A stretch of DNA of 21,839 bases from Bdellovibrionota bacterium. Lineage in GTDB: Bacteria > Bdellovibrionota_C > UBA2361 > JBIKWN01. Position 1 is the stretch's first letter. Every line of letters starts with the position of its first letter. The position numbers are program-made. Where the stretch lies: positions 1 to 21,839 of the forward strand of contig JBIKWN010000040.1 of assembly GCA_044356295.1 (NCBI GenBank), written 5' to 3'. Below, one piece after another: positions 9,001-15,000 of the stretch.

Positions 9001-12000
9001 AGAGACTCATCGTACCGCTCTTGCATAAAAAGAGATGCCGCAAGATTCAAAAAAATTCTTTCTGCATTTGGTTGCAGCCACAATGCTTGGCGAAATCGAA
9101 ATTCAGCATCAACAAATCGGCCACCAGAAAGGTACCTGAGTCCTTCGTTATTAATACGCAGTGCATCAACTTCCTTTTCTGGAACAAGTGCTTGTCGTGT
9201 TGATTCAGGAGGCGCAATAAAACAACCCGTACAGAGTATTGGAATTAAAACGGCACAAAAGGCGGTTTTGAAAAATTGCATCATAGAGATAAGCGTTTAA
9301 AGATCCTCTCGGGTATAAGTTTAATGATTAACAGAATAAAACACCAAAACCATGGGACATAAACAATATCTTTCTTATTCTTAATCGCTTTATAAATGAT
9401 CGCCCCAGCTTTTGCGGCACTGGTAAAAAGGGCATTTTTGGGAATATGGGCTGTCATAGGAGACTCAACAAACCCAGGTTTTATCGTTATGACTGAGATC
9501 CCTTTTTTTGCCCCATAATTTCTTAATCCACTTAAAAAAGCATCTAATCCAGCTTTTGTAGCGCCGTACAGAAAATTTGATCCTCGCCCCCTATCACCAG
9601 CAACAGAAGAAATAACAGCAATCGTACCTTCGCGATTTTCAGTGATAAATTGTTGATACCAAATACAGCAGTGATCCATTGCAGAGATTAAATTTACTTG
9701 AAAAAGATCTGCTCGCTTGGTTGCATCAATCAGCACTTCTTCTTGTAAAGGTAAAACACCATATCCAACGTAAATCAGATCAACTGAGACCCCTAATTTT
9801 TTTACTTCTTCAAATAACTCAAGCGGGGCTTCTTTTGTTGCGAGTTCATTTTCTAAACAATGGATATCTGTAGCACCTCGCACTTTCAAGTCCTGCGCTA
9901 GCAGTTGAAGTTTTGTTTTATCTCTTCCTGCAAGGATAATAGTAGCGCGGTCAGATGCATATAAACGTAGCGTTTCAAAAACCATCGCTGACGTTGCTCC
10001 GATTGCAAGTATTGTTGTCATAGTACCCTCCGACTAAAAGATGATGAAAATTTTGGATCAATATACTTCATAAAAAACGAAAGTTTTGGATACATATGAT
10101 GGAAACTTTCCTTACTCATTAAACCATCTTTTGCAGGATACAGAGCACCATTACAATCCATGACAATCTTTTCAAGAATTTTAAACAATTGAACGGTACG
10201 TTCACCTTTGTAAGCAAAATCAAGTGTCAGTGTAGTACCTTCCCGTGGAAAAGAAAGAAGACCTGGAGAATCGATAGAGCCAAACTCTTTTATTACTGCA
10301 AGAAAAGAAGCAGAACCAAATTTTTTTGCTTCTCGCAGTATCTGTTGAATTCCTGTTTCTTTATATGAAGGAGGAATGACGCATTGAAATTGCAGAAATC
10401 CATTTTTCCCATACATTCTATTCCAGTGATTGACTCCATCGAGTGGATAAAAAAACGGGTCATAGTGGACTGTACTTTGGGTGATACGATTTCTGAGGCG
10501 ATGATAATACAACACATTAAATGCTTGAATTGAAAATCGATTTAAAGCCCAACTGGGTAAATTAATTGGGCATGAAATTTTAGGTTCTCGGTGTGAAATT
10601 TTTTCACCGTGTACTGCATGTTCACCAGAGATAAAATGTCCTCTGCCTATCCCATCGTTTTCAGTTAAGCAATCAATCCAGGAAACGGTATATGTTGCAT
10701 CGCACGATTTGGAGATTGAAAAAAATTCGGAAAGCGAGGAAAACTTTTCAACTTTTTGATCAATATACGCTGAGGTTATTGGAATCAATTTAAGTGTTGC
10801 ATTCAATATAAATCCAGTGAGACCAATACCTGCAATTGTTGCAGCAAAATAATCTGCATTCTCGGTTGGACTACATTCTAAAATTTCACCGGATGATCGT
10901 AATAAAGATAACCTTGTTACCCACCTTCCAAACGTACCAGCGCCATGGTGATTTTTACCGTGGATATCATTAGCAATTGCACCGCCAAGCGAAACAAATT
11001 TTGTTCCAGGACTTACGGGAATAAAAAAACCTTTCGGAACTATGATTTTTAAAATTTCATCAAGAGTCATCCCGGCTTCTGCTGTTATAAGTCCAGCATC
11101 AGTATCTAAACTGAGTGCACGGTTCAAATACTGAGTCTTAATCAGAGTGCCGTCTTGATTCAGACATGCATCTGCATAACTTCTTGCTTGTCCTTGTGCA
11201 AGAAGTGAAGGTTGATTCAAGTTTATGTGGCTACTCCAAAAAGGAGTCTGAATCTCTCTATGAGATACCTTTGGGTATTTCCCCCAAGATTGAAATTGAT
11301 CTGAGTCTTTCATAGCTATAGAGAAGAGAGAACAATAATAAGAAGTATTAATCCTACAAAGTAACTTGCTTTATCTTTTAGGGCAAAGACAACTGGATCC
11401 TCATGCATCTCGCCTCGTTTTGTTTTTAGCCAAACTCGACAGACCCAGTAAAAAAATAAAGGACATAAAAGCCATAAGTGCTCAGCGTGACTATACAGTA
11501 CGGTTACATCGGCACTATTTAAGTAGAGTGCTAATACTAAAATTGAAAGAAATCCACTTGTAATCCCAAATTGGCTAATCAGACTTAAATCATCAGCACG
11601 GTATCCTCGTCTTCGAAATGTAAGATCATTTTCATCTGCAAGTGATAAAAGCTCATCATATCGCTTCACACAGGCAAGACTAAAAAATAAAAACATTGAA
11701 AATGCCAAAAGCCACTGTGAGATCGGAACACTGCAAGCAACAGCTCCTGCAAAGATTCTTATCGAATAAAGAGATGCCAGGGTTAAAATATCTACAATTG
11801 GAATTCGTTTTAATTGAAATGAGTAAAGTGTTGTCAGTATAAAATAACAACTCACGACGCCAAGAAATTCAGTCCCAATCACCAGTGCAAGTGCAAAACC
11901 AAGCGAAAGCAAAAATGGAACAGTAAACAGCCCAACGGTTCGAGTAATTTCACCTGATGCAAGTGGTCGAAACTTCTTTTTAGGATGAGCTCTATCCGCT

Positions 12001-15000
12001 TCTATATCTACAATGTCATTAATAACGTAAACAGCTGAAGCAATCAGTGAGAAACTAAAAAAGGCTCCAACTGCGCCACTCAGTGTTAAAGAATCCTGCC
12101 AACGGTGAGCCATAACCACTGGGACAAATAGGAGAAGGTTTTTTACCCATTGGTGCAAACGAAGGAGTTTCAGTAATGGCTTAATATTCATAATCAAAAT
12201 AAAACTGAAAAATAACACTGTTTATAAATGTGATGGGTGCCGCTATCCCACTGAATCTCTTTGAAAAATGACAGTGAAATTATGTAGTTATTTCTGCTAC
12301 AATTTTGGATCATATAGACTATTTTAAGCATCTTACTCGAATATGACTGCAATCCGAAACATACTTATCTTGTTGATATCCTTCTGTCTAATTAGCTGTG
12401 GTGGAGGTGGTGGTGGCTCTGATCCTAATGAGCCTGCAACTGAACCTGCATTCACTAATTTGGTGGTTCAACCTACGGCGCTTGATGCAGGAGATAAGAT
12501 AAATATCACTATCTATCTACAAGAAATAAATAAAGATGGAATTGTAGTTAAGATTAGAGTCCCCTCTTCTGTACTGTATTTTAACGATACAGGATTTCTC
12601 AACGTTGATGGCAATCAACAAAATATAGACCCTGAGTTTTATCAGTCGGCTAATAATTTTAATTATTTAGTCTACGTATTAAGCCGCGATCAATTTGGTG
12701 AATCAAATGAAGGGACTGTTACTGTTCAATTTCAAGCTTCTGCAGCAGTTGCAGCGGGTGCAGTCGCAGTTGATGTTGATTTTAAAGATACAAGTCTTTC
12801 AAATGCTGAGCAATTTGATATTGATAATCCTAGATTCAGCGCTCAAGATACAGTCGATATTGTGGTAACCAATAGTTAAATGCTTGGTAAACTTTTCGGA
12901 GGTTTTAAGAAGCCAAATCAGGCGGCACCAGAAAAAGTTAAACTTTCTTCTGGTGTGAGCGATCAGATTATTGCTGTGGTTGGAGCTCGTGGAATCCCAC
13001 CGATGCCAGGGAATGCTCAAAAAGCTTTTTCGCTTGCAGTAAATCCTAAAGCTGAAGCAAGAGATTTTATTGATCTTATTAAATCCGATGAATCAATCTC
13101 TGCAAGAATACTGCGAGTTTCAAATTCAGTTTATTTTGACAGAGGAAAAAAAAGCACCTCTATCGAAGATGCCGTAGGTGTTATTGGTCTGAACGAACTT
13201 CGATCACTACTAAACGCTTCCTCCCTTACTGCTCTTTTTCCATCTTCACATCCTGCCCGTACACTTGCGTGGAATAACGATATTGCCACAGCACTGTTTT
13301 CTAAATTTTTATGTGATAGGTTCCTTCCCGAAATGTCCTCAAGTGCTTTCCTTGCGGGGCTCATGCATGACATTGGAAAGCTCCTTTTAATCCAACGATC
13401 TACTGATGAATATACAAAACTCTTAAGAAGAGTAGAATCTGACGGAATCCCCTTTCATGTTGCAGAAGCAGAAGTATTTCCTTTTGATCATACTGAAGCT
13501 GGACTCTTAGTAGCAGAGCGTTGGAATTTTACGGATGAATTAAAACTCGTAATTAAAAATCATCACTTACCCTTTAAGAGTCTTTCGCAAAGTAATTTTG
13601 TTGGAATAGTAAAAGCAGCAGACATGCTTACCTATGCAATTGGTGTCGTTGGAGGCGCATCTTATAATCGGCTAAGAACTTCGCTTGAGGAACAACTCCC
13701 TTCTATCTGGTCATACCTTGAAATATCTGCGGCTGATGGCTCAGAGATGTGCAAGCAATTAAAACATTTATATGATTCTGAATCGGATCTATACCGTTCA
13801 CATACGTAGTGGTAATCCCAATGGATATGACGATTCTTACTATCGGATTATTGGTTGGCCTCGGGCTGCTCCTATCCTTTTCTGGCGGCTATTGGTTTGC
13901 TAATAAAAGAAATGAAGATGATGAAGACTCTAATGATAATGACATCATTTCAGAATCGAGTCTAAAAAATAACAATGGCAAAGATGCGTTGCATCATCTC
14001 TCTGCAGCTATCATTGAAAGAGATAAACATAGTAAAATTATTTTTTGTAGCCCATATACTGAAGTACTCACAGGCTACAGCTTGCAAGAGATCTATGAAG
14101 CAAAAGAAGATTTTTTTCTTACAATTTGCCCTGAAGATCACAAAGAAAGGATTTTTCGCTCATTAAAAATTTCAGAACTAAGCGGCGAGCCTTTCCAGTT
14201 TCAATTCCCTTTCCTGCATAAAAGCGGGATCGAAATGTGGGCTGAATCAAGAGTTGTTCCACTTTTTGATGATGAGCAAGAAGTATGTGGTACAATTTCT
14301 GTCACCCTCGATGTTACTGCAATGGTTCTTCAACAAAAATTAGTCGAACTCAAAAATAGCGAACTCAAAGAATTCACTTCTATTGTTTCACACGATTTAA
14401 AAGCGCCCATTTATACTATTAATGGTCTTATCAATGTCATTAAAGAAGATTTTGAACAGGAATTGCCACCTTCAGCATTAGAAATATTTTCAACAATTGA
14501 GCATTCTGGTCGCCGCCTTGAGCAGCTCGTTCAAGCAATTCTTGAATATGCACGCCTTGGTGTTAAAGAATTTTTAATAGTTCCAGTACCTCTTTCTGAA
14601 GTATTTGAGGATGTATTAGCAGAACATACACATTCAATTGACTCACTCAAAGTCAATATTACTTCTGAATCACTTCCAGAAGTTCTTGGTGATAGGTCTG
14701 CCTTAACTCAAATCTTTAGTAACTTAATTGGCAATGCAATCAAGTACCGAAAACCTGAAGTTCCTCTCGAAATTAAAATTAGTAGTGAAGCAACACAGAG
14801 TTATAAACAGATAAAGATAAAGATTGAAGATAACGGAATTGGTATACCCGCAGACCGTGTCCTCGATGTTTTTAAACCTTTTGTTCGTGTGCATGAACAT
14901 GAAGTTGAAGGTTCTGGAGTTGGGCTTGCTACCGTTAAAAAACTTGTTGAACGTTTCGGAGGATCCGTTTACGTTGAATCAATATCGACTGGCTCATTAT

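Follow-up and report, generated by a model that had tools for sequence, protein, structure and literature searches.

A candidate four-gene operon for a lipid-linked D-arabinofuranose donor in a freshwater Bdellovibrionota bacterium

A freshwater Bdellovibrionota bacterium was found to carry a four-gene operon that would supply a lipid-linked D-arabinofuranose (D-Araf) donor destined for the cell surface, a reading to which we assign a probability of about 0.75 on the strength of homology and gene order. The genes lie in contig JBIKWN010000040.1, in the window (the whole 21,839-nucleotide stretch of DNA that was analysed), and are as follows.

11316..12191, minus strand: UbiA-like polyprenyl-phosphate 5-phosphoribosyltransferase (PPPRS/DPPR-synthase type; NoeC/Rv3806c-like), 291 aa; Pfam UbiA
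10018..11313, minus strand: DprE1-like FAD-dependent polyprenyl-phospho-ribose 2'-oxidase, 431 aa; FAD_binding_4, NF053785 and PDB matches
9281..10021, minus strand: DprE2-like short-chain reductase (SDR), 246 aa; adh_short, with a C-terminal hydrophobic helix
8361..9284, minus strand: TPR lipoprotein, accessory, fourth gene of the operon, 307 aa; TPR Pfam families

Gene layout

An earlier note on this DNA had described a cassette of three packed minus-strand genes at 9281-12191 (UbiA-type, DprE1-like and DprE2-like), and its coordinates and spacings were reproduced from an ORF listing and the junction sequences. The UbiA-like gene starts at an ATG at 12191, which gives the 291-aa product, and an alternative longer GTG frame reaches up to 12218. 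The ATG of the DprE1-like gene lies 2 nt past the UbiA stop, and the DprE1-like and DprE2-like genes share a 4-nt ATGA overlap. A second 4-nt ATGA overlap joins the DprE2-like gene to the TPR lipoprotein gene, indicative of translational coupling. Thus, the three enzyme genes of the earlier description stand, but the operon does not end with them, the coupled lipoprotein gene having been omitted. All four genes are intact and coupled both here and in a genus-mate.

The three predicted enzymes

Among PDB chains, the three enzymes are most closely related to the DPPR synthase/DprE1/DprE2 trio, and the curated protein families agree, which bears out the identities first proposed for these genes. 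The UbiA-like protein (Pfam UbiA, 2.8e-24; six hydrophobic segments in a crude hydropathy scan) finds Rv3806c (8j8j) at 4.1e-29, with the runner-up at 4.7e-4. It passes NCBIfam NF006088 with 399 bits (cut-off 351), over model positions 192-477 only, which correspond to the UbiA half of that model, and it matches decaprenyl-phosphate phosphoribosyltransferase models at 2.7e-47 and 9.7e-45. The models that it fits are those of phosphoribosyltransferases, not of aromatic prenyltransferases. Its NDxxDxxxD/HPxK..RP region lines up with that of Rv3806c, the Asp-rich stretch being VINDIVDIEADRAHPKKKFRPLASG. Enzymes of the PPPRS class use PRPP and a polyprenyl phosphate, which would also be the substrates of this protein.

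The DprE1-like protein (FAD_binding_4, 1.6e-19) matches DprE1 of Mycobacterium smegmatis at 3.5e-68 and of M. tuberculosis at 8.8e-67 in a search of all PDB chains. The alignment pairs residues 37-429 with residues 58-464 of DprE1, and the next match that is not a DprE1 (2.7e-10) covers the FAD domain only. Against the DprE1 model NF053785 it scores 336 bits (4e-100), under the equivalog cut-off of 500. The catalytic residues of DprE1 are taken here to be His132, Lys134 and Lys418 in M. tuberculosis numbering; the equivalent H118, K120 and K395 are kept in 99/99 aligned homologues. The position of Cys387, the benzothiazinone-target cysteine of the M. tuberculosis enzyme, is occupied by Thr363.

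The DprE2-like protein (adh_short, 7.2e-26) has as its top PDB match DprE2 (21gq_C, 4.6e-25), aligned over residues 3-245, its whole length with the C-terminal helix included, and the next SDR follows at 2.7e-14. The S..YxxxK motif of the SDR family is aligned, reading YGATK here and YGSTK in DprE2. The scores again fall below the curated cut-offs, with 229.7 bits against 267 for NF005489 and 155.5 bits (1.8e-45) against the equivalog cut-off of 250 for the DprE2 model NF053786. The DprE1-like and DprE2-like proteins belong to a group that is sister to the actinobacterial enzymes that have been characterised; for the DprE1-like protein this group is non-actinobacterial.

The TPR lipoprotein and candidate transferases

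The product of the fourth gene matches TPR Pfam families (best 1.3e-10) and retains its lipobox Cys among homologues; its AlphaFold model (pLDDT 83.4) is a generic TPR superhelix. The gene adjoins the cassette, in either of two gene orders, in 56/84 DprE1-positive genomes of the order. It is a lineage-specific accessory for which we guess a role at or after the periplasmic step.

Two GT-C proteins encoded outside the window are the candidate users of the donor.

C51:8419-9933, outside the window: AftB-like GT-C ORF; AftB PDB match
C117:11282-12715, outside the window: AftB-like GT-C ORF; AftB PDB match

The proposal that these two genes encode AftB-like proteins was substantiated, with AftB (9dlf) being their only PDB sequence match (1.7e-13 and 6.8e-14) and also the best fold in a Foldseek search (E 1.8e-12, TMq 0.71; next TMq 0.48). 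The Asp of their W..DDA motif, D40, is invariant in 23 homologues, and this acidic motif comes after the first transmembrane helix, as expected for an AftB-type GT-C. Against NF041481 they score 55.5 and 58.9 bits, far under the cut-off of 1050, and the match is confined to the N-terminal ~270 residues. Both genes lie on contigs other than that of the cassette, and no conserved neighbour that indicates an acceptor was seen beside them. On C51, the AftB-like gene and an ArnT-like GT-C gene (NF009784, 1.1e-48) are ~5.7 kb apart, a distance of four genes.

Strong profile matches to the AftB-like family (E<=1e-30) were counted over 124 genomes of the phylum, and by our count were found in 51/88 DprE1-positive genomes versus 3/36 DprE1-negative ones; outside the order, the corresponding values are 3/4 and 0/29. 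Adjacency to DprE1 was observed in three related genomes. The AftB-like gene is a divergent neighbour of DprE1 in G063 and G053, and lies downstream of DprE1-DprE2 on the same strand in G062. The GT87 family shows no such pattern. This genome does hold five GT87 genes above the Pfam cut-off, the number previously counted, but the family occurs in 115/124 genomes of the phylum, among them DprE1-negative genomes such as G001 and G002, and does not track DprE1, so that these genes, contrary to what had been claimed, lend no specific support to a D-Araf glycan.

The AftB-like enzymes are not universal users of the donor, because 37/88 DprE1-positive genomes, among them the near-complete G024, G014 and G048, have no strong AftB-like gene. 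This observation leaves room for a tentative alternative, which we consider distinctly less probable than the reading favoured here, namely that the donor is made as proposed and its main user is a GT-C of another kind, with the AftB-like genes one variable outlet. Such a user might be an ArnT-like enzyme acting on lipid A/LPS core, or a protein (e.g. pilin) glycosyltransferase. The ArnT-like gene on C51 would fit this possibility, as would the TPR lipoprotein, a steadier companion of the cassette than the AftB-like genes; in the account of the pilin system, homologues of TfpW, which transfers D-Araf onto pilins, are reported with predicted TPR C-termini (bioRxiv 10.1101/2020.04.19.049825). 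Set against this, the AftB-like family is the only candidate observed to co-vary with DprE1, which GT87 does not, and is the sole GT-C family adjoining DprE1 in the loci that were fetched.

Proposed pathway and the missing phosphatase domain

On the basis of homology, the UbiA-like protein is the candidate for the first step as a polyprenyl-phosphate 5-phosphoribosyltransferase, after which the 5-phosphate would be removed by a putative phosphatase. The DprE1-like flavoenzyme would then oxidise C2' of the lipid-linked ribose, and the DprE2-like SDR would convert the keto intermediate to polyprenyl-phospho-D-arabinofuranose. The lipid carrier is probably undecaprenyl rather than decaprenyl. Flipping by a putative carrier would present the donor to a periplasmic GT-C, for which the two AftB-like enzymes are the candidates, and the predicted end product is an arabinosylated envelope glycan or protein. 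There is no flippase gene among the four genes of the operon, and a GtrA family search gave no match in this genome.

The identity of the UbiA gene given in the earlier note holds, but the absence of an N-terminal HAD phosphatase (HAD/PRP) domain from it had been overlooked. In most relatives of the order this domain, with its DLDGTL motif, is fused to UbiA; it was present in 56/65 UbiA frames of relatives, which are 456-546 aa long. It is missing from the UbiA gene of this genome and from that of the genus-mate G039, and no such domain was found elsewhere in this genome (93.6% complete) by tblastn of seven HAD/PRP domains at E<=0.01. The HAD phosphatase domain has been lost from the UbiA gene of this genome.

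This loss, together with the sub-threshold equivalog scores of both redox enzymes, is what could be adduced for a different outcome, in which the pathway, short of a 5-phosphatase, stalls or yields another product (a 5-phosphorylated or 2-keto pentose donor), or in which the substrate is a non-glycan prenylated small molecule, and no D-Araf glycan is formed. We regard this outcome as improbable. The four genes are intact and translationally coupled in this genome and in the genus-mate, the UbiA protein conforms to phosphoribosyltransferase models, and dedicated phosphatases are described as dispensable in known systems, the 6245 mutant still glycosylating pilin (bioRxiv 10.1101/2020.04.19.049825). 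Synthesis of a D-Araf donor remains the preferred reading.

Distribution in the order and beyond

DprE1 is nearly order-wide and rare in the rest of the phylum, as had been stated. It was detected at E<=1e-20 in 83/90 other genomes of the order (the earlier note gave 82/90 at 1e-80), as opposed to 4/33 genomes of other orders. With this genome included, the totals are 84/91 genomes and 36/39 genera of the order, and 54/55 among high-quality genomes. The UbiA type, present in 89/124 genomes of the phylum, follows nearly the same pattern. All four genes occur together in 50/84 DprE1-positive genomes of the order, on a single strand in 28 of these and in two divergently oriented pairs in the other 22.

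The D-Araf donor pathway is best known from mycobacteria, and this Bdellovibrionota lineage is not alone in having the cassette. Related UbiA-DprE1-DprE2 cassettes (42-51% identity) are common in Acidobacteriaceae and in a number of further Gram-negative phyla, homologous cassettes were found on 65 plasmids, and DprE1-like genes (~40-46% identity) on 34 Rhizobium plasmids. The earlier presentation of the cassette as a mycobacterial-type operon in a Gram-negative was therefore overstated; moreover, the part that the cassette plays in D-Araf glycans of Gram-negatives is already in print, in PMC5080398 (noeCHOP), bioRxiv 10.1101/2020.04.19.049825 and PMC11127046. The plasmid-borne cassettes, and a quick DprE1 tree in which phyla are mixed at weakly supported nodes, might suggest that the cluster is a binning contaminant or was recently acquired as a mobile cassette, and says nothing specific about this lineage, but this idea, which we consider very improbable, is contradicted by the presence of the cluster across the order, the lineage-specific TPR partner, flanks common to the genus-mate, a regional GC of 0.37-0.40 that matches the genome (0.386), and independent lake metagenome contigs identical to the stretch without any difference.

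Comparison with known systems

Rv3806c, DprE1 and DprE2 of the mycobacterial DPA pathway, which also comprises Rv3807c, and AftB are the best solved relatives of the proteins described here, and the DprE1 catalytic residues are kept. However, identity is only ~27-35% (figures of the earlier note), DprE1, DprE2 and AftB scores fall under the equivalog cut-offs, and the AftB-like protein has 504 residues versus 617-669 in AftB.

A parallel in gene order is the noeC-(noeN)-noeH-noeO-noeP operon of Azorhizobium caulinodans and Rhizobium sp. IRBG74, in which, according to the account in PMC5080398, a UbiA-type NoeC, a DprE1-like NoeH and a DprE2-like NoeO are encoded in the same order as here. The noeC, noeH and noeO genes provide the donor for D-arabinosylation of Nod factor, a lipid-linked D-Araf donor in a Gram-negative as is proposed here, and the phosphatase is dispensable, loss of noeN only lowering arabinosylation (PMC5080398). 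As described there, the acceptor is the Nod factor, the transferase NoeP is encoded within the operon, and the genes are accessory and plasmid-borne, whereas the operon described here has no transferase gene, has a TPR lipoprotein gene as its fourth member and belongs to a set conserved across an order (PMC5080398).

The PsPA7_6245-6251 cluster and TfpW of Pseudomonas aeruginosa Pa5196/PA7, compared by description only, offer an example of Gram-negative surface arabinosylation through PPPRS, DprE1 and DprE2, with PsPA7_6246, DprE1 and DprE2 reported to be needed for pilin D-Araf and the GT-C transferase encoded elsewhere, as are the candidate transferases here (bioRxiv 10.1101/2020.04.19.049825). 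By the same description, that cluster includes a phosphatase of the PAP2 type as well as a GtrA-like protein, neither of which was found here; a TPR module goes with the transfer step there, as the predicted C-terminus of TfpW homologues, and has a possible parallel in the TPR protein described here, which is a separate lipoprotein; and the tfpW-pilA link has no counterpart seen here (bioRxiv 10.1101/2020.04.19.049825).

DprE1/E2 homologues are described as accompanying Araf-containing glycans by Kelly et al. (2024; PMC11127046), whose scheme, in which a PPPRS works with an auxiliary epimerase and a periplasmic GT-C, matches in concept the one proposed here. In the three-component system of Citrobacter youngae (ORF12-15) presented in that work, ORF15 belongs, like the UbiA protein described here, to the HAD-UbiA (PRK08238) family (PMC11127046). 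Unlike that system, the operon described here has neither a MATE/GtrA flippase gene nor a GT-C gene, its GT-C candidates are AftB-like and not GT136, and its PRP domain has been lost (PMC11127046). The system described here has the appearance of a core trait conserved in its order, and not of a serotype variable as in Kelly et al. (2024; PMC11127046).

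The operon and its surroundings

Four co-directional genes on the minus strand were found to make up the operon, as read from the ORF list and the junction sequences. The earlier note had described a three-gene operon for the D-arabinofuranose donor, and those genes, encoding a UbiA-type polyprenyl-phosphate phosphoribosyltransferase (PPPRS), a DprE1-like FAD oxidase and a DprE2-like SDR, were reproduced exactly; the fourth, encoding a TPR protein at 8361-9284, had been overlooked.

Features of the window
918-3303: hemE and protoporphyrinogen oxidase, ordinary neighbours
3766-4917: response-regulator-like SpoIIE/PP2C phosphatase, ordinary neighbour
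8361-9284, minus: TPR protein, 307 aa, second ATGA overlap
9281-10021, minus: DprE2-like SDR, 246 aa, ATGA overlap
10018-11313, minus: DprE1-like FAD oxidase, 431 aa, start 2 nt past the UbiA stop
11316-12191, minus: UbiA-like PPPRS, 291 aa from the ATG at 12191, with a GTG frame reaching up to 12218
12343-12879, plus: divergent 178-aa lipoprotein
12880-15026: HDOD protein, then PAS histidine kinase, ordinary neighbours
15716-17804: motA-motB, ordinary neighbours
18973-21080: rsmG and THUMP-like methyltransferase, ordinary neighbours

The GC content of the operon region (0.37-0.40) is that of the 2.96-Mb genome (0.386), and a scan for promoters and terminators gave counts not above those of shuffled sequences (8 versus 12.7 and 4 versus 3.3). 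In X2, an independent metagenome from lake water, contigs match positions 8300-12900 piecewise and without differences. Among the pieces are 10887-12191 and 12167-12342, which rules out a single-assembly artefact as the source of the short UbiA start region. In two further lake metagenomes, X3 and X4, contigs show loose ends precisely in the UbiA start-codon region (window 12191-12198), which suggests strain variants differing at the UbiA 5' end, where relatives have a HAD domain.

The ordinary neighbours are unlinked to the operon in relatives, except for the HDOD gene in the genus-mate G039. The divergent 178-aa lipoprotein has a poly-Gly linker behind its lipobox and no family match. Its gene also adjoins the operon in the genus-mate, and genome G050 has, about 1.3 kb away from one of its AftB-like genes, a homologue of 27% identity (locus L117:3746-4348); a link of this lipoprotein to the arabinosylation system is possible.

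Identity of the encoded enzymes

Among all PDB chains, the DprE1-like protein was found to match, through its residues 37-429, M. smegmatis DprE1 (3.5e-68) and M. tuberculosis DprE1 (8.8e-67); the next family reaches 2.7e-10, in the FAD domain only. The DprE2-like protein matches DprE2 along its whole length (4.6e-25; next SDR, 2.7e-14), and the UbiA-like protein matches the DPPR synthase Rv3806c (4.1e-29). The latter also scores 399 bits against NF006088 (cut-off 351), a 482-position HAD-UbiA fusion model of which it covers positions 192-477 only. The two redox enzymes score below the cut-offs of their equivalog models (DprE1, 336 bits against 500; DprE2, 155 against 250), and these models rank best or second-best for them among curated models. 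The residues equivalent to the DprE1 catalytic His132, Lys134 and Lys418 (Mtb numbering) are invariant in an alignment of 99 DprE1 homologues. The benzothiazinone-target residue Cys387 is Thr in this genome; across 17 sequences of the order UBA2361 this position is Cys in nine, Ala in four, Val in three and Thr in one.

The phosphatase domain of the synthase

The UbiA gene was captured in 65 loci of the order. Its open frame measures 456-546 aa in 56 of these, and a HAD domain with the motif DLDGTL opens all seven long frames inspected; one further frame is cut by a contig end. The architecture is that of the phosphoribose-phosphatase fusion known from Citrobacter ORF15 (PMC11127046). Short frames of 294-336 aa occupy the remaining eight loci, including those of this genome and its genus-mate. 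No HAD domain was found near the eight short-frame loci, nor was a HAD/PRP copy detected anywhere in this genome with the family model and seven HAD domains from relatives. A stand-alone HAD gene beside the AftB-like gene on contig C51 (L001:6675-7340) was considered as the phosphatase and found unsupported, being SerB-like HAD-IB and unmatched by the PRP domains of relatives. Published work shows that phosphatases of this kind can be dispensed with; pilin, for example, is still glycosylated in a P. aeruginosa 6245 mutant (bioRxiv 10.1101/2020.04.19.049825).

Conservation within the order

The phylum Bdellovibrionota_C comprises 124 genomes in a single class. At E<=1e-20, DprE1 is present in 84 of the 91 genomes of the order, in 54/55 of its high-quality genomes and in 36 of its 39 genera. 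That DprE1 is nearly universal in the order and rare in the remaining phylum, as had been claimed, thus holds at this threshold (83/90 without this genome versus 4/33). The UbiA type follows nearly the same pattern (89/124 genomes at 1e-40) and also occurs in the DprE1-negative genomes G001, G002 and G097. G001 and G002, which belong to the order and are both 94% complete, carry a short UbiA-type phosphoribosyltransferase (G001:C7:12202-13065; G002:C10:72914-73783) and neither DprE1 nor an AftB-like gene; the donor produced by these two may instead be a lipid-linked ribofuranose. In family f19 (G076, G077 and G078), a DprE1-like gene was observed without UbiA, DprE2 or TPR inside 6 kb; in G076 (L026, C18, 5690-8749) it lies between 6-phosphogluconolactonase-like and GT2 glycosyltransferase genes.

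The DNA around DprE1 was scanned with profiles for every one of the order's 84 positive genomes, and the TPR gene lay beside the cassette in 56. It forms part of a one-strand UbiA-DprE1-DprE2-TPR row in 28 genomes and of a UbiA-TPR pair divergent from the DprE1-DprE2 pair in 22; in six more it is present and a contig end cuts the locus. The presence of the TPR gene in both arrangements indicates that it was kept with the cassette through rearrangement. The loci without it comprise 18 uninformative ones, where the cluster lies less than 1.5 kb from a contig end, and ten flanked by 1.5 kb or more on either side. The genus-mate, counted among the 18, keeps the first 47 TPR residues at its contig end.

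A conserved lipoprotein partner

The TPR protein was identified as an exported lipoprotein on the basis of a hydrophobic N-terminus ending in Cys and a lipobox, ..[AG]C-A-[LA]-P-P, in all of its homologues from related genomes. AlphaFold models the protein as an ordinary TPR superhelix (pLDDT 83.4). A fold search with this model returned generic TPR superhelices only, among them PilF and the TPR domain of OGT, with no functional clue. The family is tiny: only five proteins of similar length were found in a large protein collection. In tblastn searches of the 80 best-matching loci of the genome collection, the TPR gene was detected in six, all labelled as Bdellovibrionota, and was undetected beside the cassette in the loci of other phyla.

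In genome G010 (L025:8084-9769, C4), DprE2 and the TPR lipoprotein form one open frame of 562 codons with a signal-peptide-like hydrophobic segment between them, representing either a true fusion or a stop codon lost in the MAG. The topology of the single frame would be consistent, with a cytoplasmic reductase, one membrane span and a periplasmic TPR region, and such a DprE2-TM-TPR protein hints at a coupling of donor synthesis with periplasmic use. Complex prediction for the mature TPR lipoprotein and the AftB-like GT-C lent no support to an interaction (score 0.01, mark 0.32), which is evidence neither way.

Possible users of the donor

Two GT-C proteins had been singled out as AftB-like, and sequence and fold comparisons bear this out. 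AftB (9dlf) is the sole PDB sequence match of both (C51:8419-9933, 1.7e-13; C117:11282-12715, 6.8e-14). It is also the best fold match of the C51 model (pLDDT 87.7, pTM 0.90), with an E-value of 1.8e-12 and a TMq of 0.71, ahead of the next GT-C, ALG12 (5e-4, 0.48). A motif, W..DDA.I.FR, with an invariant Asp is common to 23 members of the family. At E<=1e-30, the AftB-like profile matches 54/124 genomes, namely 51 of 88 DprE1-positive versus 3 of 36 DprE1-negative ones; beyond the order, the match is found in 3/4 DprE1-positive versus 0/29 DprE1-negative genomes. This co-occurrence is given without a statistical test because related genomes are not independent. The three AftB-like but DprE1-negative genomes, G018, G022 and G026, lie inside the order; their completeness is 55%, 87% and 95%, respectively, and G026 shows 9% contamination. 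The AftB-like gene adjoins DprE1 divergently in G053 and G063 and follows DprE1-DprE2 on the same strand in G062. A total of 37 DprE1-positive genomes without a strong AftB-like match, including G024 (5 contigs), G014 and G048, speak against a simple one-to-one link.

The five GT87 genes that the earlier note had counted in support of an arabinose pathway were dropped as a marker, as GT87 occurs in 115/124 genomes irrespective of DprE1, including G001 and G002. No GtrA-family protein was found in this genome. Across 19 loci, the conserved neighbours of AftB-like genes were within-genus families only, none pointing to an acceptor.

On C51 (L001, 1261-13970), the AftB-like gene was observed inside an apparent surface-glycan cluster. 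The other members are an ArnT-like GT-C (NF009784, 1.1e-48) and a GT4 glycosyltransferase, together with an asparagine-synthase-like protein, a SerB-like HAD-IB phosphatase, an unknown of 203 aa and a protein of 1346 aa that has no PDB match and matches FAD_binding_4 below threshold only. On C117 (L002, 3981-15152), the second AftB-like gene stands beside genes for a collagen-triple-helix-repeat protein and a transglutaminase-like protein, with an ORF6N/Rha phage-type regulator, an HTTM-domain protein and an F5/8 type C domain protein as further neighbours.

The cassette in other lineages

At least 589 DprE1-like relatives were found in the genome collection. The best 80 are 46-51% identical, except the genus-mate (68%), and come mostly from Acidobacteriaceae, the remainder being from Chloroflexota/Thermomicrobiota, Opitutales, Gammaproteobacteria, Acetobacteraceae, Rubricoccaceae, Nitrospinota and Nitrospiraceae. 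Among these 80 loci, tblastn placed a DprE2 homologue after DprE1 in most, and a UbiA homologue ahead of DprE1 in most of those from Acidobacteriaceae. In the large protein collection, DprE1-like clusters at E<=1e-30 number at least 7968 and bear the generic name 'FAD-binding oxidoreductase'. A DprE1-like homologue was also found on 65 plasmids, 34 of them from Rhizobium; an Agrobacterium plasmid carries a row of UbiA (486 aa), FAD oxidoreductase, SDR, epimerase, a second FAD oxidoreductase and GtrA. A FastTree phylogeny of 99 rows divides the DprE1 sequences of the order into two or more groups, which weak nodes connect to other phyla. Because the deep nodes are weak, no donor or direction of transfer is drawn from this tree, and the sequences of the order may be of single origin.

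Proposed pathway and significance

Homology and comparative genomics give good support to the reading of this operon, proposed in the earlier note, as a D-arabinofuranose donor pathway. We infer all catalytic steps from the genes, gene order, homologies, conserved residues and genomic associations observed. UbiA would convert PRPP and polyprenyl-P to polyprenyl-P-ribose-5-P, which would next be dephosphorylated, in most relatives by the fused HAD domain. DprE1 would then oxidise the 2' position with FAD, and DprE2 would reduce the keto intermediate to polyprenyl-P-D-Araf with NAD(P)H. A carrier would flip this donor, and AftB-like and possibly other GT-C enzymes would pass the sugar to an acceptor, with the TPR lipoprotein as a putative periplasmic accessory.

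In a further-reaching reading, D-arabinofuranosylation would be a core, vertically inherited envelope trait of the whole order rather than a serotype-type accessory, and would require a lineage-specific TPR lipoprotein of the outer membrane as a physical link between the making of the donor in the cytoplasm and its use in the periplasm. This is considered unlikely, at roughly one chance in five. If true, it would represent a Gram-negative counterpart of the arabinan-bearing envelope with a new accessory component.

D-Arabinofuranose is otherwise famous for its mycobacterial drug-target pathway; here, an uncultured freshwater Bdellovibrionota lineage is predicted to decorate its envelope with this sugar. 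Two details may be of use to glycobiologists, namely the TPR lipoprotein conserved as a partner to the donor genes, and natural synthase variants with and without a fused phosphatase domain. What is new is modest: order-wide conservation in a Bdellovibrionota lineage, the conserved TPR lipoprotein partner, and the loss of the fused phosphatase domain in the genus.

A literature search on DprE1 and Bdellovibrio returned nothing related; the candidate systems in SI Figs S11-S12 of PMC11127046 may include Bdellovibrionota or Acidobacteria. The genes noeC, noeH and noeO of Azorhizobium noeCHOP are orthologues of mycobacterial DPA genes (PMC5080398), and P. aeruginosa has a D-Araf pilin pathway (bioRxiv 10.1101/2020.04.19.049825). 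The paper of Kelly et al. (2024; PMC11127046) gives a general scheme of PPPRS, auxiliary epimerase and periplasmic GT-C, with DprE1/E2 homologues accompanying the Araf-containing glycans of Gram-negative bacteria. Such cassettes being already known as widespread in Gram-negative bacteria, the general picture is unchanged, and the present system is one more case of a known, widespread kind.
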